Positions 1 through 63,584 of a DNA stretch of 64,000 bases are shown one piece after another. The stretch is taken from the NCBI GenBank assembly GCA_965235115.1, contig OZ249436.1:9674001-9738000 (forward strand), written 5' to 3'. Origin of the DNA: Laetmonice hystrix. Its lineage: Eukaryota. The notes under the pieces were generated by a model, which was not told where the DNA came from, ran no database searches, and worked only from the letters and a program-made list of their open reading frames with translations. Made by a program: the position numbers and the translations under genes. Each line of letters opens with the position of its first letter. Position 1 is the first letter of the stretch.

Positions 1-2121
1 TGTTTTATTCACCCCACAAAGAGCATAGCATATATTTCAGCCTTTAAGGTTTTGTGTCCCCAAATGATCACGTCTTCGTTCCCTAACACTGATTAACAGA
101 GCTATAAATGGAAGGTAATATTTTTGTGTGCGGGGTCCTAAATGACGCTGGGTGAGGTCCAATATGTGGTAAATTGATACTGTCACCCCGTCATGCTTCA
201 CCGCTCCTGGACCCCCTGGCAGGGGTCGGGTCACACTGTGTCACATTGCCCTATACTGGAATGTCGGTTAAATACTTACTCAACCACTTCCCCCAGTGGT
301 ATGCCCACTGGAATGTCGACATTACCTGGCAAGCATAAAGGTCCAGATCAATGATTTTAAGTGCAAACGTGAAACGGATACAACCCCCCAACAGAGTGCC
401 TGACCTGGCCAGTCTCGGGCCAGTCTGGAGACACCCTGCAGTTGTAAACAAGTGGCTCAGTGGGTCTCATGCAGAGACGTTCTGCCATTCAACAGCTGAA
501 AAATAAAACTGATTACGAGGTGTGGTACGAGTCAGGACATCGGTGTCATCAAGACAATATTATTGTTGAGGTATTACTGATTTTCGAATTAAAATAATAT
601 AGCTTTCACCTTTCTTTATGGTAATTTCACCACTTGAACCTATACCACGAATATTTCAATGTACAAGCCTATAGGCTTACCCCCTATAATGTTAAAATGT
701 GTGACTCGGTCTGACACTAGATAGTGTGAATACCCTACACATAAATAAGATATTAAGTCTAGATCCTTTCACGCAATTTGGTGAATAGGCCTAATGGGAT
801 TTTATACACGGAAAACAATGTTTTTTGCCATACTTCATTAGCAGAGACAGCCACCGTATATTAATACGTTATCTGCTCCCAAGCTCAGCTACTGACCACA
901 ACATACACTGATCATACTGGAGCAAATGAGGTCAGACGTGAAGTCGATGCACATCCGGTAATAGAGTTCCGGCTGGGAGAGAGTCGACTATGTGAGACAA
1001 AAATTGCTCCTGACCTCCCTCCGGGTATGTAAAATGTTTGACACTGATAAACAACTAGATTGCACAGGTGTCTGAATATAATGCGTCAGGTTTTGAAACA
1101 GGCAAGCTGAGAAGGGGCAGGCCTGAGGGTAAACAAAAACAAAAACACTGACTTTCACAAAATGTCATTTTGGAGGACACTGTGGAAGCAAGTCTGGGGA
1201 TTGAGAAATTTGTCCCCATTATTAAGACTACAAGGGAACACATGGGGGAACCTCTGCATCTCTGCACTCCTAGCTCCTAGCTATGGTGCTCTATTTATTA
1301 AAGTAGTCGGCCTACCTTATTTTGAGTCTTTGAAGGGCGATAAAGAAAAGTGCTATATTTGCATTAAAAAAAAGTTTGATACGTAGATCTATGCCTGAGA
1401 AACTATGAAGTGAACTGGAGCCAACTGTACACAACTATATACACATGTATTATAGGCAGATTAAAATAACAACACTATCAAGTCATCGTGTTTGTAGCTC
1501 TAAGGGGACAGGGCACAGGGGATCCAGTAAGGACGCTCAATCTGCAACCTCTTGACTTCTAAACAGGCCCAAATACAATATTTTCTTAACTCTAAAGTAT
1601 TGTACTCAGTAAGAATGTGCTTCAATTCAGTGCTACGTGAAAAACATACCGGGGGTAACCCAGTGCTTGACTGGCAGGTGAGCCTTGGAGATATGTCACT
1701 ATTCTCTGGTAGGCCACTAGGCCTATATATTATCGTGATATAGACATGTAGTAGCCTACTGCATCCTCCTCTCCAGATCTATAGTTTAGCCTATAGCATC
1801 CTACCTAATATCTTAGCAGACCCCCTATTTCTGTCCTTCTCTGCTTCCCTGGCTGAGAGAACGGGAGAAAACTGCGTTGAGGCGGCAACAACTTCCCCAG
1901 GTAAAAATACCACTGACTCAGCAGCCAGGCGAGCCCTCAGGGCTGTCTATCTGCCTCCAGGTCTCCTGCCACATAGAATACAGAGCACTTGGGGACTCTG
2001 CCGCATCACACAGCCAGACCAGCTGGGGCAGAGGTGTGCGAGATCCTTGACTACATGGCCGCACCAACTTCAGAACAGGATTACTTCTGTTAAAAAAGGT
2101 CAATTTCACATGGTCACCTAC

Positions 2122-2235
2122 CCTTTGGATAGTGATGGGCTGGCCATATTCCGTCCCACCTTGTAGTCGAAATCCCCATGGGGTTTGTACATTGTCCCGT
2201 ACAATCTGAGCCTTCAGCACGTCAATTTCCGCCAT
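2122..2235 (-). CDS. First coding exon (proximal) of a PDZ-domain gene, Zasp/ALP/Enigma (PDLIM)-like; remaining exons not identified in the window
   Basis: Translates MAEIDVLKAQIVRDNVQTPWGFRLQGGTEYGQPITIQR and ends at a phase-0 donor AGG|GTAGGT. PWGFRLQGG...PITI is the N-terminal PDZ signature of PDLIM/Zasp proteins. Confidence 0.8.
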
Positions 2236-4258
2236 GGTGTATATGCAGCGTCTCAAAAGGAGTGGCGGCAGAAGTGCATGTGGATGTCAGTGAGCCAGGC
2301 GCAGCGCCGCAGAGTGGTCGGCCGGGCCCTCTCAGCGCTGAGCAGACGATAAGGACAGTATACTAACCCGCCAACAAGCGACACAACACTATATACCACT
2401 CAAGTCGCCGTCCTTGCACACAACGTCCCGATTTCTCTCCAACAACGCATTCAACTGGTCATTCATCTATGGGTTCACTTCTTAAATATTATGGATTCTT
2501 AAAACAGACTTTGATAATGCAGGTATTGCAGTAGGGGTCTATAATGTTATGCCCTGCTGTTTAGTGCTGCTTAGCTTTCTCTCTCACTCACGTTTTGGCT
2601 GAAAACCCTGGCCTCCGGCTATTAAATACTCTGTAGTTAATGCATCGCTGCACACCTGCCGTCGTAAACACACAGGTCTACATTTACGGTCACAAGAGCG
2701 AGCAGATGTCTTTTACCAGTGACCGACTCAGCTATAGACTCTACGTCCACCGAGGCTCGCTTCTGGCAAATGAATTCAAGAAGTTCAGACATCGCCTATC
2801 CCTTGCCCCAATAATAGATTCTTTCAGAAAGAAATAAGTAAGAAAATAAAAAAATTAATAAATATAAAGAGAGAATGGTGGCCTGTGGACATATCCTGCT
2901 TCTCATGGTGACTTTTATTATTTGGAAACGGGATACTATCAACATATCTGCTGGAGGATACTTCGTTGATTGCATAATTCATTGCTGCCATCTGGTGGAT
3001 GCAATAGTTAGTATAGGGCCTATGGCTCAAAAGTTCAACTTTTTCTTGAGACCAAACCATTATAGGCCTATACATCATGTTTTCGCCTATTGCCCTGATA
3101 TAGCCATAATGTTATCAGCTATATATAAATATTTTCCAATGCTGTTAATGTGCAATATGGTATACAAGTATTTGCTTTATCCCAAGCGGTAGCCTGCATT
3201 GGTCATGTCTTAGAAGAATCTTGTTGATATCAAAGATGACTGATAAAAATGTCGAACAGATGCCTTCAAAGTCCCAGGGAACGCCAGCCGTTTGCCTTTA
3301 AGCCCACGGATATTTCCAAGTAGAGTTTACACTAAAGAAAGTATTCCGTGAGAGTGGTCATAATAATGACTAACATTCCTAGGGCCTGACTCAACCACGA
3401 AGCACGAGGCTTAGTGTCAATACGTTGTCACTGAGGACTTCACATTCCTAATGAGATGTTTGGACATCTAAAACATCAAACCATGCTCTATGAGCGATAT
3501 ATACCCTCGATGGCCGCAGTAATGTTGACCTAATAATTTTGTTGACATTTCTCAAGCCTCTATCCTCCTATGAATGTGACGAGCCAGCTAACGCTCAGTT
3601 AAATGTTTATCAGGCTGGAAAAAAATGCACTCTTTATGCATTAACTTGACTATACAACCCAAAGAATTAGCCAGTCAGAAACAATTCCAAAATGTAAAGT
3701 TATACGATTTTTACGCCACCACTGATATATTTGCCAATCAATTCAAAACTTCTAGAGGCTTTGCCCCGGTCAGCCTGAGCTCGAGATGCAATACTTTTCA
3801 TATTTTGGCATTGCGGGCATAAAAGTGCCGGTATAGTCGTGCATGCATGACCCAAATAACCTATCCTAGCCAATACGATCAGCGCCGGCGTTCGTTCCTC
3901 TCAGCGAGCAACCAACGCCGAGGAACGAACGCCGGGGCTGATCGTATCGGCTACGCCTATCCCAGCTTTTGCAAAAAAAACGTTTAATGAACGTTCTAGG
4001 AACATTATATGATGTCTGAATAAAATGTGAGCCGGGTGTAGTATGCGTATCTATATATTTTTTTTTATAAATAGGGCCGTATCCTGCCAAGTGCATGGCC
4101 TGGGGGGTTACAAAGTCTGCGACCGCATCAGCGGTAGCCTAATTGCAAATAGATCGATACCAAAGGAACCGATTTACATGACCTATAAATTACATAAGAC
4201 GAGTGGGAGCACACTTCTGCTCGGTTTCCCGCGTTTCGACTTGAGTTCAAGTACTCAC

Positions 4259-4420
4259 CTGTTGAATGGTGCACGGCCTGCCATCAGCTGGAGGTCGGAG
4301 ACTAATGTTGGCGTCGTCATTATCGGTCCAAACCACGCCCCAGTCCACATCAAAACGCTCTCTCTCGAGGAGGGCTTCGAACACGTCGATTTCTTCAGTA
4401 GATTCATCAAGCCTGTGCAT
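4259..4420 (-). CDS. Distal alternative first exon of the same PDZ gene (diverged duplicate of exon 2122-2235)
   Basis: ATG at 4420 gives MHRLDESTEEIDVFEALLERERFDVDWGVVWTDNDDANISLRPPADGRPCTIQQ, then a consensus phase-0 donor CAG|GTGAGT. Aligns with the proximal exon (EIDV..A...R......WG ... G.P.TIQ). Confidence 0.65.
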
Positions 4421-4939
4421 ATTAGGTGTAGCTTTTGTGTTCGGTCACAGCAGGTCTGTACGACTTGTGGACTGTATTTTAAAGTCGTAGAGTAGGCCTT
4501 CTACTGGCGAGTAGATGTCGACATACCGGTAGCCGTAGGCCCCCCATGCATGATTGGTCCAAATTCCTTTAATGCCGTTTCACAGTCCATTAAGGAATCG
4601 CGATGGTAGGCTTCATTGTTGTAGGCGTTTTTTGGCATTTTTTGCGTCATGGTCTTTGCGGAGGCGCCCGAGTCAGGTCATTCATCCGTGAAGTGGGATC
4701 CTTTCTTGGCGGACCGGAGCCAATGGACTTAGAATCTAGGCCTATACTGATCATGACCTGAACAACAAGACCCCGTCGGAGTCACATCTCCCAACTGGGA
4801 TTAGTCTAGATCTAATTATCTGTTGCGGGTAGGAACTATAGGCTATGCTTACTATGCGCAAGAATGGCAGGGTGCACACCATTCCTGCTATGCGTATTTT
4901 GCATTTTTGAGATAGACATTGTCCATTGATGTGGGAACC

Positions 4940-6250: not shown

Positions 6251-7428
6251 ACCAAGTCCAGCAGGACCCGGCGTGATGTCCTTCTTGCAAGAATGGTGGA
6301 ATGGTGGATCATGCTTCCTGCCACGCTCTTCTGCTCAGTTCCCTGCTGAACGTATTGGCCTCCTAGCGGAGACACCGGAGGGCTTGGCTTTCTGGGCGAG
6401 GAGCACTACAACGCCCCCTGGCGAAAGGTTGGAAGCCACCTAGCGGAAGCTTCACTTAGGACGTAGTACGGTCGTGTTGCCTTTCGGAGGCAAAATCAGA
6501 GGACCTCTGACTTGGAGATCTCACAACTTTTGCGTTTGGCCTTGTCATGAAATCCTTGAAATGAAGTTCCTCATGCTATGAAACCACGCAACGTTATGCC
6601 CGAATCAGAGGTTTGTTTGAGCGTTTATTATTGCATTGTGGGAAAGTCAAGAAGACGATGGTCTCGGCTCATTTCACATTTGTTTGGTTCGCGGCCAATC
6701 GCTCCGCGGACCGAGTCTAAAGAAAAGATTTAGCCTAGGCTAGAGGCTGACCTTAGCCAGAGGTATCACTATATCAGTACCAGTGGCCTGGGGTATCGAT
6801 TAGGCCTCGTTCTAGGCGGCAGGATACGGCACTAAAGCTTTAACAAAGCCTAGCCTAGGGCCAGGCTACTGGGCCAGCTATATTATGCTGTTGGGTCGTA
6901 AAGGTTAAAATTAGGCGTTGGATTGTTTTCGGTACCATGTTTTCCTACGCTACGCCTACGGGGCTTGGACTTGAAGTTGATGCCAATGATGGACTCAAGT
7001 CAAACTCAAAGAGTGATGACTTAGCCTAATTAGAAGTTACTAGTTACTACACAGACTGTTAGATTAGATAAGGCCTTAGTCTTAGACTACATAAATCAAT
7101 AAATGTACCACCAGAAATGGAGAGGGCATTGACTTGAAGTTGAACAGCCAATGAAATTCATAGGGCAACGAACTGATTTTCAACATTTTCATTTCTTCTA
7201 TAATAATTTGGTAATCCATGACTATGTGTTTCACAGCTAGCTAACTGATGACATTTTAGCAGACACCGAGTGGTTCAATAATAAACTAAGGTCTGATTGT
7301 ATTCGCATATCACAAATTATATGTTACATCCTATTTACAATGTTGTCTTTTTTTGTATAGATCTCAAGAATTCTCTTTTTTTAATTCGCAATTTTCATTA
7401 TTTTTTTCAGAATGTTTTTATCTCCAAA

Positions 7429-10131
7429 ATGGCAAGCAAGATGAATTCTGTGTTCTACCTAGACTATCGCAATTTGATGCCACCTGTGGAGGAGCGTCCT
7501 AAACCAAAAAGCTGCAAATTCCAGTCACTGTCTGACCGCTTTCTCTCGTACGAAGGTGATGTGGATTTTAACAGTGGTCAAGATGACGATACATCTCTCC
7601 TGTCTTCTGAAAAGGTGGAAATCAAAGATCTGGTTATCAAAATTGCAGTTAAACAAAACAACAGGTTAACATGGGATATCCCAAAGAACAGAGAAGAGGT
7701 GGAGCCTCTGCAAACAACCACAAACAAGAAAACCTTCCAACTTGAGAAGAAAAACTTTCCCTCAAAAAAAGATGAATCCATTCCATCACAAGCCAAGCCA
7801 TTGGACCGTAACGTAAGGCTCACTGAGGTAGAGAATGAAACCAGGAAAATGAAAGAGAAACTGAAACAAACACGCACATTGCGAAGAAATCTCCTGCTAC
7901 CTCAGGAATCCACTACATGGGCTGACTTTGTTCAGGTAGATTCAGCCAGTGTTGAGGCGGAGACTAAAGTCAGTGAAGATGCCACAACGTCAGACAGTTT
8001 TACCAAACAGACAACATTCGAATCTTTTGGGAGCACTCAATCTGAAACACATGCCTGGAAGAATACTGAGACTGCAGCCAGCAAGACTTCGACTACAACA
8101 AATTACAGGTCATCTGAAGAGCAAGTGGGCAAATACCTCAACAAGAGGGATCCTAGACTCATGCACACAAATAAAACGGAGCTGACTGTGCCAGTGGAGC
8201 ATGCATCAAGTAGGCCCTCCTTGGTAAAGAAAGATGTGAGTAAACAATCAATAGGACACCCATCCAGTAAAGATGACGTTCAAAAATCTGATAGCAGCAA
8301 TAATATTCAAAAAGGGAAGTTAGTTACGAATGAAAAGTCTGTTTTGAAAGTGGAACCTGTTCAAGCAAAGTGTGGAACTGTGAATCCAAAGAAAAAGAAG
8401 TTGTCTGGTGGAGAGTGTAACACTGGAGGGAGCTCACCACAGAGCAAGGCTAAAAAGGTAGCTGCCAATCTGTCTGCTGATATCATGACCAGGAAACAAG
8501 GAAAACTCAAGGCAGATTTTCTGGTTGATCTCATCAAAGGAATGGACGCAAGCAGAAATATTGATAAAGTTAACAGAAACGTGATAGATATGGACATTGA
8601 AAGTGATGATAGTATTTGTGAAATAACTGTGCCCTCTGAAACTCAAAATGATGGTGCAGATTTTTCAGTGGCGAAGGACACTTATTTGGGTGAGTCAGCA
8701 AAGGCTCAAAATACAGATCCTGTGCCTGCATCTCTTGACCTTTCAATTCCTGGCTTTGACAATCTGCCAGATAACGAGAATGGAATGGCCAGTCCAGTCG
8801 ACAGGAGATCAGAGGCCAGCAGGCAAAAGTACAAGGAAGTTTGTGGGGGAAGACAGCAAAGCGAGCCACAGAACATGAGACCTTGGGCCCCAGTACCCCA
8901 ACCACCAATAATTGGGCCCCAGGTTTGTCTTCCACCCTTCACCCACAATGTATGCGAATACAACCAATGGCAGAGCAGTGACTGGCCTCCAGTTTACCTC
9001 AACCTTCAGCCACAGCCTCCATGGTTTCATTGCCAGGCAGAGAATCGTTACTTTGGGAGAAGCCTGGACTGCTATGGCTTGAACGATGAAGCAAGGTTTT
9101 CAAATAATAGTTCCAGTGGCAGCAGTCAGTCTTCAGACGAGGCCCTCAACCTGAAGCCACCTCCGGCTCCATATAGAATTGACACTACTATTGGATGCCA
9201 CGGCCAGACATCGGATGCCTTGTCTCATCTGTCCCAGTTTGGGCGTGGAGACAGGGAGAGGTTATCTGAGGTGGTGCCACCTTTGCTGCCACCACCGGTG
9301 CCACCTTTGCTGCCACCACCCCCACCTCCACTTCCACTGCCACTGCCACCACCCCCTCAACCTCCCCTGCCAGTTCCCCCACCATCATTACCATCTACAT
9401 TACCAGAAGAGGCCTCAAGTAATGTGAAAACCCTTCCAGAGTCTTTGCCCAGTAGTTCAGCAGCACCGGTGTCTAAAATTGGACAAACCCCCCAGATACA
9501 AGAAGAGCTTCCCCCACTGCCAACAGAGGAACCCAAAGAAAAGCTGCCTTCACAAAAAGCTCTTCATGCAGACTGTAAACCGTCTGTGGCCGAGACCAGT
9601 AAGTCTGTTACTTCTACAGAGAAGGAAGGAAGCTATGCACCTCAGCTGTGGAGCCCAGTAATGATGACCCCAGATTCAGATCAGGAACCAGCAAAGTTAG
9701 AAACTTATTCTCTGTGTATAGTTGACATTCCACCACCAGTGATTGCTGACCATATTCTGACTGGGGTCACAACTAAACGTCCTGAGGTGAGCAGTATCTC
9801 AAAGACTCTGCCAGGCAGTTCAGCAACATCCCAAAAAAAGCAGACGGCAGACCAGAAACTCCAGCCAATTCCATCGAAAGAAGCAAACGCTACCAAAGAG
9901 AACAGACCCACCAAACCTGAAACGCGGGGGAAATTCCATGGTCGCACTCTGCTCATGGGTAAGGCAGTGCCTCCGCGATACGTCCCCATGGAACCGCTCT
10001 ACATAAAAAAACCATTCACATCAAGAGGCACCAGAGAAATAATTCCCATTGATCCCCGCATTGAATTTTACAGAAAACGGCAAAAACGTAAGGAAGAAGA
10101 GGAAGCACTCTATGTGGATTCTTTGCTGTGA
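7429..10131 (+). CDS. Uncharacterised 900-aa low-complexity, Ser/Thr/Lys- and Pro-rich protein in a single coding exon
   Basis: 2.7-kb uninterrupted ORF. Acceptor TTTTTTTCAG ends at 7410, just upstream of AAAATGG at 7429. A candidate non-coding first exon ends at about 6610 (GAG|GTTTGT). AATAAA at 10825, 10917, 11955, 12338. No recognisable folded domain. Confidence 0.75.
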   Translation: MASKMNSVFYLDYRNLMPPVEERPKPKSCKFQSLSDRFLSYEGDVDFNSGQDDDTSLLSSEKVEIKDLVIKIAVKQNNRLTWDIPKNREEVEPLQTTTNKKTFQLEKKNFPSKKDESIPSQAKPLDRNVRLTEVENETRKMKEKLKQTRTLRRNLLLPQESTTWADFVQVDSASVEAETKVSEDATTSDSFTKQTTFESFGSTQSETHAWKNTETAASKTSTTTNYRSSEEQVGKYLNKRDPRLMHTNKTELTVPVEHASSRPSLVKKDVSKQSIGHPSSKDDVQKSDSSNNIQKGKLVTNEKSVLKVEPVQAKCGTVNPKKKKLSGGECNTGGSSPQSKAKKVAANLSADIMTRKQGKLKADFLVDLIKGMDASRNIDKVNRNVIDMDIESDDSICEITVPSETQNDGADFSVAKDTYLGESAKAQNTDPVPASLDLSIPGFDNLPDNENGMASPVDRRSEASRQKYKEVCGGRQQSEPQNMRPWAPVPQPPIIGPQVCLPPFTHNVCEYNQWQSSDWPPVYLNLQPQPPWFHCQAENRYFGRSLDCYGLNDEARFSNNSSSGSSQSSDEALNLKPPPAPYRIDTTIGCHGQTSDALSHLSQFGRGDRERLSEVVPPLLPPPVPPLLPPPPPPLPLPLPPPPQPPLPVPPPSLPSTLPEEASSNVKTLPESLPSSSAAPVSKIGQTPQIQEELPPLPTEEPKEKLPSQKALHADCKPSVAETSKSVTSTEKEGSYAPQLWSPVMMTPDSDQEPAKLETYSLCIVDIPPPVIADHILTGVTTKRPEVSSISKTLPGSSATSQKKQTADQKLQPIPSKEANATKENRPTKPETRGKFHGRTLLMGKAVPPRYVPMEPLYIKKPFTSRGTREIIPIDPRIEFYRKRQKRKEEEEALYVDSLL

Positions 10132-12856: not shown

Positions 12857-15415
12857 TTAGGGAGCGACACCTCCATGGCTTTGTTTTTGCTCCTGCTCAA
12901 TGAGTCCAGTTTCCGGAGTTCTGAGTGAAAATACTACAGGAATATTTCCAAGTGTTGGGTTTGTATCCTGCAACCATTTCACCCACGAGATGAGAGAATC
13001 CTTAGTTGAGGTGCCGGTGATGCACATGGCCAAGACCGTGCCATCCTCCTGCTCGTGAACACTAGGTACCTTTACCACCGATTTTGACTCCTTTTTGTCC
13101 ATGAAAAATGGTATATCCTTCAGGAAATCTGTGACCAGAAAAATGCGACAAGTTTCAAAACTTTGCATCATGTACATTTCTTTTCAAATCATTGTGTGAA
13201 AATGAAAGCTAAAAAGTATAGTAAATACTGTTTTTCAAATTAATACACCGATATTTTGGCGTGTACCATTAATAGGCACATTCAAAACTTCTTGTCCTTT
13301 CTACTTGGGAATGGGCAATGACCTAAACAAGACAAGAGAGACACTGCTAGTTTGGGGTGGGGGGGGGGAATGATGAACTTGTCTTAGCTAGATTCTGCCA
13401 GTTGTATCCAAATAGAATAAATGATTTCTTATTCACGACACCGAGGACGAATCAAGGAGATAGTCTCCTTCTCTTTTCTACATGAAATGAGTACAAGATC
13501 AATTAGTAACCTCTTTATTATGTCATCTGCCGTTTTCAACTTACCACTGAAATATGCAGCTTCATCATATTCTGCCTCTTTAAGTTCTTTATGTACCCGA
13601 AACGTTGCCGTTGCCTCGGACTTTAGGATGAAGAAAGTCAGGTTCTTGTCACGCAGCCAAACATTGAAGCCTCCTTCGACAAAGACTGGTTTTGTGACGT
13701 CATGTTCAGTGAGAAGACATTGCTGTGAAGGACTCTGAGCACTTACCACAAACGTCTGGTCGTGGGCATCCTTTAATTCAGACGTCTATAGCAACCAGTA
13801 AAATTAACAGTTTACAATTAAAAACAAAAACCAACACAATCAACAGTTTTACAATTAAACACAAAACCAACACATTTCGCACAGTTCAAGAAAATTAAAT
13901 TTATACACTTGATAAATGGGATCAGACAACTCAACCACGAAGGCCTTATCTTATTATAAGAGTTTGTATGTATTTTTATACATGAATATAAATGTTTCCT
14001 AGGTGAGGAAGAATCTGGTTCTTGATCTTGCTACTCTTCCTTACTCAAACTCTGCAGAAGATCTTTTGAGACAATAAAATAATGCAGTCTCCTTGCATCG
14101 AAGTTTGAATTAATCATTACATTGTACCAGGGGGTATGTACACTTGTTAAACTCACCTCAAAATCTGAGATCTTATTTTCTAAGTCCATAGCCATGCGTT
14201 TCAAAGCTATCCTTGCAAGTTCCCTTGGGTCTTCTGGAAGGGTGTAGGGTATAGGAAAAGGGTTGGCATTCTTGAATTTGGGTAGCCAGTACATCATGCG
14301 CTGGTACTTGCGAAATGCATGCGCCTTCAGCCCGAAGATCTCTGCCAGCTGATAGCCCATTGCATCATCAGGTATGACTCCTATTGAAACATATCATCTG
14401 AATGAGTCCATGGCATATAGATATGAATGATGATATGGCCGAAAAACGTAGAACTAATGTAAGTGACCATTCATGGGTATCGATTTGGAGCAGACCAGAA
14501 AGAACAACTTTAATTTGTAGGAGTGCTCAGACTGGTGGGAAATCAGCCAACGATGATGTATGTATGACCCCTAGTTGGTAATACTAGAACTTGAGACTTT
14601 AGTTTACTGCCAGTTAACTTACAAGCATTCTGACAAGCCTCAGTAGTTATTGTACCTTTACAATTATGAGGCACTTGTGATGTTAATTTTGCTCATTTTA
14701 AAAAATCTTAAGCTGAAAGGCTTTAATTTTATTCTGATAATCAGCAAACAAATTTTGTCATGAGTTTCCTTACCGTGTGATTCCATCTGGTCTAGAACAT
14801 CTATAGCACACTGCTGTTGTTTTGGGTAATGCATCATTTCCACCTGCCATGTATTGCGTGGAATCATCTTTTCTTTGGGCATCAAACTTAGGATATTTTT
14901 GTATGTTTCCAAGTCCTTCTCTACTCCAAACTCCTACAAGGGAACATTTAACAAATTTAATGTCACTTTCACACAGTGTATCTTGTGTGGAACCAACCCA
15001 AACCTACCTACTTACAGATTTTAGCCTGAACAAGGGAGTTTTGAACACCACTAAACTAAAATCTGTCAGTAATACTGATGGTTGAAATCCTTACCTTCAT
15101 CCGCTTTAGTGCAGCATAGATAAATTCAACATGTCCTCGCACATATTTATCATGACGAGATTTATACTTTGAGACTGCTTGCTCAAAGGTCTTCTTGCTC
15201 TTTTCTCTCCTGGCTGCTTCATCAAACACTTGACCCTTGCTTACAATGAGCTGTTTTTCTTTCTCTTCGTGATCTTTGTCCCTTGCATCAAGAAACCTCT
15301 GTCTTGCAGTCGTGTGCATGGGTCGCGACCTGGACCACCAGTCAAGGGAACGAGCTCTGGACTTAGCATGGAGCAGTACAATTTGAAAGGATTGTGCGAC
15401 TTTCTGGGCCATCAT
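12857..15415 (-). CDS. ECSIT: ECSIT (evolutionarily conserved signalling intermediate in Toll pathway; mitochondrial complex I assembly factor)
   Basis: Phase-consistent GT-AG exons 15095-15415, 14774-14933, 14157-14380, 13545-13785, 12857-13128. Motifs RGHVEFIYAALKRMKEFGVEKDLETY, HYPKQQQCAIDVLDQME, MMYWLPKFKNANPFP, PVFVEGGFNVWLRD and EQEDGTVLAMC are characteristic of ECSIT. Confidence 0.93.
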
Positions 15416-16382
15416 TATCCACACTGAAATCACAGAATTGTAAAGAATTGTGAGAACTGCAATTATAATGTGCCACTGAGTAGTCGAAATGTTGATCTTA
15501 TCCTAACAATTGTCCTGTTTAATTTGCAAGTGAATCAGTCTGCAAACATCCTTTTTTTTTAGGGGGTCATTTAGAACCTTTTATAAAAGAACATTTTATA
15601 AATACTCAAATTCGTGCATACCATAACTTCGTACACAAGCGATTTCTGTACCTTGCAGTTGTTGCCAGGTGGATATTTTTGCTTTGTCACATATAGGGGT
15701 ATTCATTGGTCATTTTTCCGACTGACAATCTCGAAACTGTCCAAAAACAAGATTTAGTCAGCTGTTCTCGAATTTTATTGATCTCGCCCCAGTGCCATCA
15801 AACCAGTCATGACAAGCTCTCTCCTATGGGAAAAGCATTGTAACGTCACGATGCGCAAAGTTTAGGTTTGTCAGTTGTACATCTTCCGATGCAGTGGCCT
15901 TAGATGTTGAGTGGCAGTAGGGTTGGGGGCAGGAGGGGGAGTGGGAGCGGGTTCAGCATGTGAGGCATCTCATCACTGTAGCAAAAGATGACAGTGACAG
16001 TGACAGATCGAAGGGTCAGGGTGAGTAAGATATGCATTCCCCCTCAGGAGTATGACTAACCCTGATCAGTTATGTCATACTGGGGACCCTGATGAGGCGC
16101 GAAGGCAAGAATAGTGGAGTGTCTTGTAGGACGTTTGATCCACTTGAAAAGTCAGCTGCGGCTTGCTGGGTCACAGTGGGTGGCTTGGGAAGTTGGGCCA
16201 AATGGAGGGCGATATTAGGGGACACTTCTGCTTCTCATAAATAATTTCAACGACATTGTATAGGCCTTACACCATCACAAATGTCATGTCCCGAATATCA
16301 TCTGATCATCGCATACAGCCATAATGACACATAACAGATAGATTTAGGCCTAGATCTACACTGCGTAAATTTATCCACTTAC

Positions 16383-22453: not shown

Positions 22454-25400
22454 TTAATCTTGTTTTTTCACAGGTCCAGGTGTACCAGCTTGTCGATCTG
22501 CTGGGCCGTGCCCTCCCTGGATCCCCACAGTTTGTCCAGCCTGAGAACCACTGGCCTCCTCGTATTTACTTGGCCTTTGTTTCTTTGGTTTAAAAAGATA
22601 CCCACACAGAAGGAATGCAGCTACCCATATATGTCCGACATAGTATATGCTTCCCCAGTAGTGTAACGTTTCCTTCCAGCCGAGCAGAAGGAAAGCCATG
22701 GCCATATAATCCAGGGAACGCTGTTTCCAGAACCAACACACCCAATCAAAAGTTCTCTGATTCGCTGAAGGTTTGGGATCTCGGAAGGCTGCCACCATCC
22801 AATCTTCAGCCACCTGGTTCGGGGGAACCATGATGAAACTCAAGTAGTAACCAGGATAGATACCATGCCAGAAGGAACTCACCATCATCGTTATTGTCAT
22901 TCTGCAATTGTAAGCAAATATACCTGATACAAAATATCAGCAACATGAAGTATTAATGTCCATTAACATCTTTCTAACTCATAAACGATTTTTATCAGGG
23001 TTTTGTTTTGTTACTGAAAAAAAAAACAACCACATATCCATTATCAGACCCTAACTGTATCCTACCTGTATGCCTTTAGTGATGCTGGTACCCTTCGATA
23101 CACAAAGTTGGCCAACCAGAACTGTACTGTCATGTTCCATGAACGCATGCCTTCCCGAATGGTTGTAGCCAGTTCACATCCATATATACTGATATTGTGC
23201 ATGGTCTCATAGTCGTAGTCCACTGATCCAATCTCTTGTTTCTCACTTAAGTTAAACGATAGCACACAAAACTTTATTTCACATACTGGTATATGAATGA
23301 TCAGCATTAGTGACACATTACAACAGGAGTACCAGTAATCTATTTCAATCAGCAAGTCTAGAGAAAACTTTGAGAATCTTACTCTACTTTACAAGACTCC
23401 AAACAGCTGCTCCATGATACTAATAATTACACCATCTACTCATCTTTTCTGAACGATGACAAGAAGTTTATTCTTACCAATCCCTCAAGGCTTCTAAATT
23501 GGTTGGGCCCTGTCCACAGCGTGATTTACTTGCTACAGGATATGCCCCAAGGTTGGCAGTCATGCACAAACTCTCAGACATAAGCCAGGCGAAGTAGAGC
23601 CTCATGCGGAAAATGGTAAACATGGGAACCATGTACCATAGGCGGTACCAGAATGGATGATTCAACATCTCCTCTGAGGCTGCATACTAGATTAATAATA
23701 AACGCTAAAGTTAGGACCAACTCTCCTCACCCAATGGCATTATATACTCTCTACATTTCAGTTTAGTTCCTAATGTCTCATGTCATTAAAAACTAATGGT
23801 CTATATTTTTTGTAACACAGATACTACCCAAAACCTAAGTGAACTTACACTGATTTAAGAAAAGAGAAAAGCTGCTAACCTCAATATTGTAGAAGTATGA
23901 CAGGCCAAGGAAAATAGCAGATATAAGTGGCACCCATTTCAATCTTTTTGTCAAGGGAGTGACAAAGTCTATCTCATCAATGCGCTCTTGATGTATCATA
24001 TCTATGTATGTGCGGAACTTGTAGTATGGTCCTTAGTAATAAAGTATCAGTATTGCAATCAATTTAAAATTATATAGCAAACAGATTATAGGACAAATGT
24101 GTAGACTTGACTGGCTCTGGCATGTGTAATCACAAGTTTACTGTATTCTCATAGTATCACAACTAGAAGGCAAACGATTTGAGCACAATAAACACTACAC
24201 TAAAGCAGCTTTTATCTTGTTCCATACGGTACTGTTCTACTGAAGCCAATTATTTTAGAATGTCTGTTCAAATAAAAACTAACACTTGATAAGCTCACCT
24301 GTCAGAAGGCCAAGATAACAATAACTGTACAGAAACATATCAAAGATAGATGGATAGATATTCTGGTAGCGACACTGAAGCTTTATCTTTTCATCTGCAT
24401 CATTCTTCTTAGCTGCCTCATCATTCTTGTCAGTATCATGGACTTCAAAGGCCAGTCCCACCAACTGTAAAAATAACAATCATAACTAAATTTTCCATCT
24501 GTAGCTCTAGTTTTGTAGGTAATTTTCTGACATTCCACCCAAAAAACTAAGCACTATACAAACTACTGTAGACCTTATAATTTCAATGCGCACAAGAAAA
24601 CAAATCATTATATTAGAATCCTCTTTAAAGAAACATGAACCTATCACGTAAAATTTCATGTTGTATGTACCTTTAAAGTAAGAAGCAGCTGCACAGCATT
24701 TGCATGTGCTGGTACTTGTGGCAGCCCAAGGTAATGGGTGGTTCGAAAGAAAACGATATAGCCAAAACACCATATAAAACTTGCTATATGGCATTTTCTG
24801 GAAGAAAAGAAAAAGAACATTAATATTTAGCAGTTTGGGTATTGAGCAACCTGCAGCAGTTATGGCCATGTAAAAAATTGTCTAGGTGTGATATGCTAAT
24901 AGCAGACTTTGCAAATTAATTCTCAGCACATATATGTATTTCCTTTTTTGGGGGCTTTGTTAGATCTATTTCATAATGAAAGGAAATACTGTATATGTCC
25001 TATTTGCCGCGCACCTCCTATTTGCCGCGCACCCCAGCATTTTTTAAAACCCAATGTGTTTGTCAGGGGTGGAAATTTGGGAAAACTCATATTGGGGACT
25101 CATATTGGGGACCTATTTGGAAAGAAAATGCCCCCTTAACGTTAAAATAATTCATTTGCCGCCACCCCCTTCTGCACACGCGCATGCGCGGCAAATAGGA
25201 CATATACGGTATTTATATTCATAATTATAGCGAGCGCAGTGAGCCGCGAAGCGGCTCGCAAAGCGAGCTCTATACCCAAGGAGAGCTGCATACCGTGCAA
25301 CGATCGGATATGGAAATCTGTGGAGGTTTTGGTGGTATTACGAAGCCGGCAAAATCGGAGCAATCTGATTGGCTTAAATTGCACTGCATCGAAATTCAAA

Positions 25401-30552: not shown

Positions 30553-63584
<33,032 letters not shown>

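Follow-up and report, generated by a model that had tools for sequence, protein, structure and literature searches.

Host gene and paired first exons

The window, i.e. the whole stretch of 64,000 nucleotides of Laetmonice hystrix DNA that was analysed (G000:C1:9674001-9738000), contains two first exons of a PDZ gene, which like the gene itself lie on the minus strand. The canonical first coding exon, E1b, occupies positions 2122..2235 (38 codons, P0002), carries the PWGFRL motif and ends at a phase-0 GTAGGT donor at 2116..2121, preceded by AGG. The distal, diverged copy, E1a, is located at 4259..4420, with 54 codons counted from an ATG that has an A as its -3 base (P0001), and ends at a GTGAGT donor at 4253..4258, preceded by CAG and also in phase 0. 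The initial annotation of this DNA had proposed such a tandem copy, and its coordinates, its 54-codon open frame, its alignment to the canonical exon and the phase-0 donors at both exon ends are all borne out. Intron 1 takes up 1..2121 on the same strand and runs on past the left edge of the window to the shared PDZ exon 2 (G000:C1:9664972-9665124, minus strand), which lies about 8.9 kb beyond that edge, 11.0 kb downstream of E1b and 13.1 kb downstream of E1a. The acceptor of exon 2 is in phase 0 and in frame with both donors, in agreement with the common downstream exon that had been postulated. E1a and E1b are hence a tandem pair: homologous, on one strand, and in the same phase relative to one shared exon.

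The closest solved structures to E1b are the PDZ domains of LDB3/ZASP/Cypher and PDLIM5/7, and its PWGFRL motif places the E1b isoform among the Zasp PDZ domains. Exon 2 matches PF00595 with 32.5 bits (cut-off 23.2; orthologues 48.6 and 54.3), and for the ZM segment (PF15936, cut-off 28.7) exons score 29.8 and 27.4 bits, the latter being a truncated stretch just below the cut-off (orthologues 38.9 and 40.9). A protein search with exon 2 yielded 6 proteins from 23 candidates, five of which combine PDZ with PF15936, with LIM listed in none; the sole named protein among them is from the annelid Paralvinella palmiformis, which agrees with an annelid host. The last exon of the gene resembles the C-terminus of the orthologue P0004, with a stop near C1:9643367, and LIM exons occur only further on, behind a second PDZ exon pair. 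Since this C-terminal exon stops ahead of the PDZ, ZM and LIM exons of the second gene, the first gene lacks LIM; on its exon content it is a LIM-less PDZ+ZM protein, Zasp66/67-like by layout alone, and read-through isoforms reaching the LIM exons may exist.

The second gene is a tandem paralogue (G000:C1:9639320-9620426, L015-L017, minus strand) that starts about 4 kb past the stop of the first and comprises a separate PDZ exon pair, two exons for ZM and further ones for LIM. Within the first gene (L013/L014, minus strand) four exons end with a Q-S-x-[TS]-F-x-x-[LV] motif (G000:C1:9653355, 9652784, 9651217 and 9645897) and two encode ZM (9649195 and 9643890), compared with one ZM and one such motif in the orthologous proteins; the repeated motif ends and ZM exons are probably further duplicated alternative exons. 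An 817-codon open frame among these extra exons resembles the long disordered exon of Zasp52. Exon 2 here (L012:972-1124) has the alpha-B His that characterises class I PDZ domains; in several orthologues this His is replaced (with Y, S, L, Q, G and other residues found around it), hinting at non-standard ligand binding in the subfamily.

As regards the rest of the window, a 944-codon open frame with no Pfam match (7297-10131, plus strand) lies some 3 kb away from E1a, in head-to-head orientation to the PDZ gene, and the minus strand carries what we take to be an ECSIT-like gene (12857-15502), an MBOAT7-like gene (22454-23388) and exons of a non-muscle myosin II heavy chain (42851-56264). At 36108-37101 there is a G-rich tandem repeat with a strong GC skew and open frames in each of the three phases of the minus strand. 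The genome holds at least 10 first exons of PWGFRL type, most of them ending 19 residues past the W at a phase-0 donor, and includes two further PDZ genes of this type that face each other head to head at a distance of 9 kb (minus strand at G000:C1:13226070, plus strand at 13235263). Another region, G000:C11:15024403-15075704, shows at least 16 intact PDZ-coding stretches in about 50 kb, each with the whole domain in a single open frame.

Homology and conservation of E1a

Compared directly by BLASTP (a single comparison), E1a and E1b align end to end with 13/45 identities, one 9-residue gap and E=9e-5. In a scan of 184 kb against E1b, covering 809 donor-like sites with at least 30 open codons upstream, E1b itself scored 199 and the first exon of the neighbouring paralogue 96; E1a came third with 43, the top score among non-PDZ donor sites, followed by 22. 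In a laxer scan (617 GT sites, at least 10 codons) short units of an intron 1 minisatellite reach 34-36 against E1b, so that the score of E1a is by itself indecisive and the decisive evidence is the orthologue described below. E1a also resembles E1b (43) more than it does any of 8 paralogous first exons (at most 23), one of the eight having been cut at the wrong donor and a ninth left out. Over 38 aligned codons the two copies share 19, 22 and 12 identities at codon positions 1 to 3, with pS 0.85, i.e. saturated synonymous sites, against pN 0.45, which points to an old duplication with protein-level constraint.

The minisatellite (L012:5128-6025) consists of 18 copies of a 50-bp unit that, read on the gene strand, resembles the end of exon 1 and has a donor-like site. 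It was considered as a third copy of the first exon and rejected, since 8 matches to its unit occur on other contigs as well and the likeness is for this reason probably a coincidence.

The genome holds E1a once, and over the core of the exon (bin 4319-4572) the depth of three DNA sequencing runs is that of single-copy sequence. In these runs the depth is flat across non-coding DNA, as is typical for DNA, and none of the junctions listed falls at 4259 or 2122. Contigs from these three runs of one DNA sample also give a view of polymorphism: among the substitutions listed, E1a has a synonymous one at 4298 and a D>N change in the loop at 4324, and E1b has none, with 28 substitutions and 55 indels standing beyond those listed. 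A 7-nt deletion somewhere within 4129-4297 and an unplaced 5-nt insertion near E1a lack exact positions, so a frameshift allele of E1a may occur.

A HMMER search with E1a over 1.84 billion representatives returned five matches, four of which (P0015, P0016, P0018 and P0019) are repeat proteins and were discarded as chance. The fifth, P0017, is a clear orthologue of E1a from another organism, lying on a 351-kb contig and belonging to a cluster of 2 near-identical sequences (P0017/P0020); it does not stem from a second copy within the present genome. Both sequences start with M-H-R-L, share D-W-G-[VI]-[VL]-W and are identical at 29 of 46 residues, with 24 of the first 28 and 5 of the last 18 conserved, and their difference in length amounts to 8 whole codons. 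The likeness between species (63%) thus exceeds that between the copies (13/38), as seen in one orthologous cluster only. The end of P0017, P-x-x-I-Q-E followed by V-S, equals the window frame read through the GTGAGT donor, and we infer the same donor and synteny for P0017, which is known as a protein alone. Past this point the sequences of the two species are unrelated, with a stop after 3 residues here and 38 more residues in P0017.

In a neutral simulation carried to the equal number of differences, 8,838 of 20,000 runs stayed open, and relative to these the differences between E1a and P0017 are more conservative (P=0.025); at least 24 identities in the first 28 residues arise with P ~1e-4, for a block picked post hoc. 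The conservation of the reading frame, on which the initial annotation had made its proposal depend, is thereby found elsewhere, in an open frame with the same apparent donor, and because the orthologue keeps start, frame and sequence in another organism, E1a is under protein-level selection. Judged from its sequence, E1a is a real, old and conserved duplicate of the first exon.

How widely E1a occurs was addressed with a scan of relatives for exon 2, in which 106 of 499 stretches were confirmed, 80 loci were kept and the best 33 of these 80 were analysed. Within the best 33, all four spliced contigs join an exon of E1b type to exon 2, and E1b is present in 12 genomic contigs. In 15 genomic contigs from relatives, which may not be long enough to show it, no exon like E1a turned up when they were scanned from donor sites (best score 23); 7 of these contigs, with 5 distinct E1b sequences, extend 2.4-7.2 kb upstream of E1b. 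All eight database proteins with an intact N-terminus are of E1b type. Weak searches for a spliced E1a protein gave 0 of 14 and 0 of 35 candidates, exact look-ups in the protein collection 0 of 6, and a metagenome scan with the E1a alignment confirmed 0 of 435 stretches. Look-alikes of E1a annotated as DUF2442 in the ESM Atlas (0.90, with low recognition) were set aside as weak. Near the 8 paralogous first exons of this genome no duplicate copies were found, the best non-self score being 20. Within the limits set by short contigs, E1a therefore seems confined to this gene and some lineage.

The putative PDZ domain formed with E1a

The exon encodes beta-A, the carboxylate loop, beta-B and most of beta-C, and to that extent it does swap a half of the domain; the earlier wording that this is the ligand-binding half is too strong, because the shared exon 2 encodes the alpha-B wall of the groove. 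We take the Arg and W-G to form the carboxylate loop, the F and L of beta-B to line the C-terminal pocket and the two glycines after beta-B to open the beta-B/beta-C loop. The predicted rewriting of the segment from carboxylate loop to beta-B is supported in E1a and its orthologue, both of which keep DWG-[VI]-[VL]-W, and the paired changes F>V/I and L>W look volume-compensated. A loop about 9 residues longer, also predicted, is seen in E1a (28 residues from W to donor vs 19 in E1b and 7 paralogues) but not as a general feature: the orthologue, with 20 residues, gains only one over the canonical exons, and the long loop is accordingly lineage-specific.

A PDZ profile built from 11 orthologous PDZ domains gives 82.0 bits for E1a plus exon 2, 68.5 for exon 2 alone and 145.4 for E1b plus exon 2, i.e. 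a gain of 13.5 bits from E1a vs 76.9 from E1b. E1a plus exon 2 is matched as one domain across profile positions 3-89, a score of 82 being reached by none of 200 shuffles, and in 15 aligned rows the residues M, D, V, A, R, W and G are invariant. Pfam finds no match with E1a alone, and likewise none with E1b alone. Among solved structures E1a has no PDZ match, with two chance matches at E 2.2 and 4.9; compared by profile with a canonical orthologue it shows weak similarity (probability 6%), and a prediction of the complex of E1a and exon 2 as two chains, computed without alignments, gave no usable model (score 0.01). The conservation of E1a is found mostly in its first 28-31 residues, a stretch that appears more helix-prone than a beta-A strand, the canonical L-K-A-Q-I-V-R having become F-E-A-L-L-E-R with loss of beta-branched residues.

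Concerning ligand binding, the E1a isoform departs from the Zasp PWGFRL motif, since W-G alone is kept and P, F, R, L and both glycines are replaced in both species. In fly Zasp52, according to excerpts of PMC5081203, P18D together with W19F, R22T, and changes at G25 and at G26 each abolish actinin binding. At the positions of P18, R22, G25 and G26 E1a and its orthologue have D/D, V/L, D/E and N/A, respectively, with the W kept. The comparison is a partial one, since the mutant residues in these excerpts differ in part from those of E1a, P18D was made only together with W19F, and legend and text conflict on which of G25 and G26 became D or W. With four motif positions essential in fly Zasp52 changed, the E1a isoform is, by analogy, probably without alpha-actinin binding. 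For the conjunction of a folded PDZ with lost actinin binding we lean only slightly towards acceptance.

Transcript structure, alternatives and related systems

The explanation that we consider best is that the first exon of a LIM-less, Zasp66/67-like PDZ+ZM gene was duplicated in tandem long ago, and that each copy would now serve as a first exon, chosen by the start of transcription and spliced to the common exon 2. E1a and E1b would be mutually exclusive, because the E1b leader lacks an in-frame acceptor (no in-frame open acceptor was found in it). E1b would give the usual actinin-binding PDZ, and E1a a PDZ that still folds, with the Arg, the W-G and the alternating hydrophobic pattern kept and F>V/I offset by L>W, in which the beta-B strand and the next loop are rewritten and acidic. 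The E1a isoform would keep ZM for contact with LIM-bearing Zasp proteins, most likely without binding alpha-actinin, and would bring another ligand or act as an actinin-uncoupled competitor. That E1a is spliced into this gene we regard as likely on the sequence evidence; for the whole reading, from duplication through alternative starts to a folded PDZ that does not bind actinin, the balance tips modestly in favour. A bolder version, in which a promoter switch yields two folded PDZ domains with two specificities, namely the ancestral actinin binder and a groove re-specified for another partner by W-G-[VI]-[VL]-W and the acidic loop, is put forward tentatively, as something less probable. Regulatory motifs say little here: a CArG site lies at 3057 (4 in the window vs 6.6 expected), and the MEF2-like site at 4065 is uninformative, since such sites (26 vs 9 expected) are dispersed over the entire window.

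E1a might instead be spliced to exon 2 and yet have lost the PDZ fold, its acidic N-terminal 28-31 residues being a new helical or linear motif, so that the product amounts to a ZM protein that lacks a PDZ domain and bears a new targeting tag. This would suit the distribution of identities with the orthologue (24/28 at the N-terminal side vs 5/18 at the end), the reduced number of beta-branched residues in F-E-A-L-L-E-R, the replacement of both glycines after beta-B and the small profile gain relative to E1b. The residues retained from E1b, however, are structural ones (D-V, A, R, W-G, P..I-Q), and the end of beta-C and the splice phase, needless for a free motif, are kept in both species, which makes loss of the fold rather unlikely. 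Somewhat less likely still is that E1a stands outside the mRNA of this gene, as a relic or as the coding region of an independent short transcript with a 57-residue read-through product. The protein searches without a spliced product, the relatives' contigs without an E1a-like exon, including those that reach well upstream of E1b, and eight ATGs within 280 nt upstream of E1a are what one would expect in that case. A relic, on the other hand, would hardly have kept its ATG, open frame, donor and conservative substitutions despite saturated synonymous sites, and a read-through product is disfavoured by the unrelated sequences past the donor in the two species.

The upstream sequence offers one more arrangement, since a frame-preserving GT-AG interval of 114 nt at 4413..4526 (minus strand; GTATGT...CTAAT..CAG, with a branch-like CTAAT) could be a leader intron, in which case an acceptor at 4413 would remove the ATG of E1a and make it an internal exon joined to coding exons further upstream, with a longer N-terminus. 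Its pyrimidine tract is poor (10/22, vs 14 in exon 2 and 11 in exon 3), in the upstream frame a stop is reached after 18 codons without an intervening ATG, and the orthologue keeps the M-H-R-L that would then be intronic; we judge this candidate intron unlikely. A 49-codon ORF upstream of E1a (4501..4650, minus strand) is absent from the protein collection by exact look-up, and its inclusion in an E1a transcript hinges on the transcription start.

If E1a is a first exon in its own right, as we prefer, the arrangement belongs to a known class: the excerpts of PMC8373072 count 39 N-terminal events of tandem-duplicated first exons in a human set, likewise homologous first exons with alternative promoters. 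Among the matches listed in the supplementary table of that paper, the events of PDLIM3 and LDB3 are internal ones, and excerpts of PMC4494069 locate the events of both genes at the ZM region; the swap here, by comparison, is inside the PDZ domain, between copies about one third identical. Splicing within PDZ domains is described as little reported in the excerpted text of PMC7094393, whose PTP-BAS example, PDZ2a/PDZ2b, involves a 5-residue insertion (in PDZ2b), as opposed to the paralogous exon that here replaces a strand and the carboxylate loop. Drosophila Zasp66 and Zasp67, the LIM-less ALP/Enigma 'blocking' proteins, resemble the present gene in having PDZ and ZM without LIM, and the PWGFRL motif of its E1b isoform and its many alternative-looking exons are further points of likeness; excerpts of PMC6910826 and PMC9751615 describe neither a duplicated first exon nor a swap of half the PDZ domain. 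The LMO7-mimicking Zasp52 mutants, as presented in the excerpts of PMC5081203, have the same four motif positions changed and actinin binding abolished; they were engineered and modelled on a separate gene, whereas here the changes come from an exon of the same gene. The extracts of PMC9751615 and PMC5167519 mention nothing of such a first-exon swap. Duplicated alternative first exons are thus known as a class, and a swap of the front half of a PDZ domain by one was not met in the literature searched, partly seen as excerpts and with few subscription journals covered.

As to what the isoform might do, in flies Z-disc growth is set by ZM-LIM contacts, according to the passages excerpted from PMC6910826. 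Given these contacts and the retained ZM, the E1a isoform could enter Zasp assemblies without actinin anchoring, or bring another ligand to them, and it might have a role in muscle. If E1a is spliced and folds, it would make a natural chimera in which one alpha-B half is combined with two beta-A/B/C halves that are one third identical, and would offer a direct test of how far the N-terminal half sets PDZ specificity. The reach is limited to one gene and, so far, two organisms. For the growing/blocking model of Z-disc size, the E1a isoform would add a third kind of Zasp isoform, with ZM present, LIM absent and actinin binding off, and should both domains fold with their own specificities, the locus would represent a half-domain swap found in nature, one by which a Z-disc scaffold is uncoupled from actinin according to tissue or stage.
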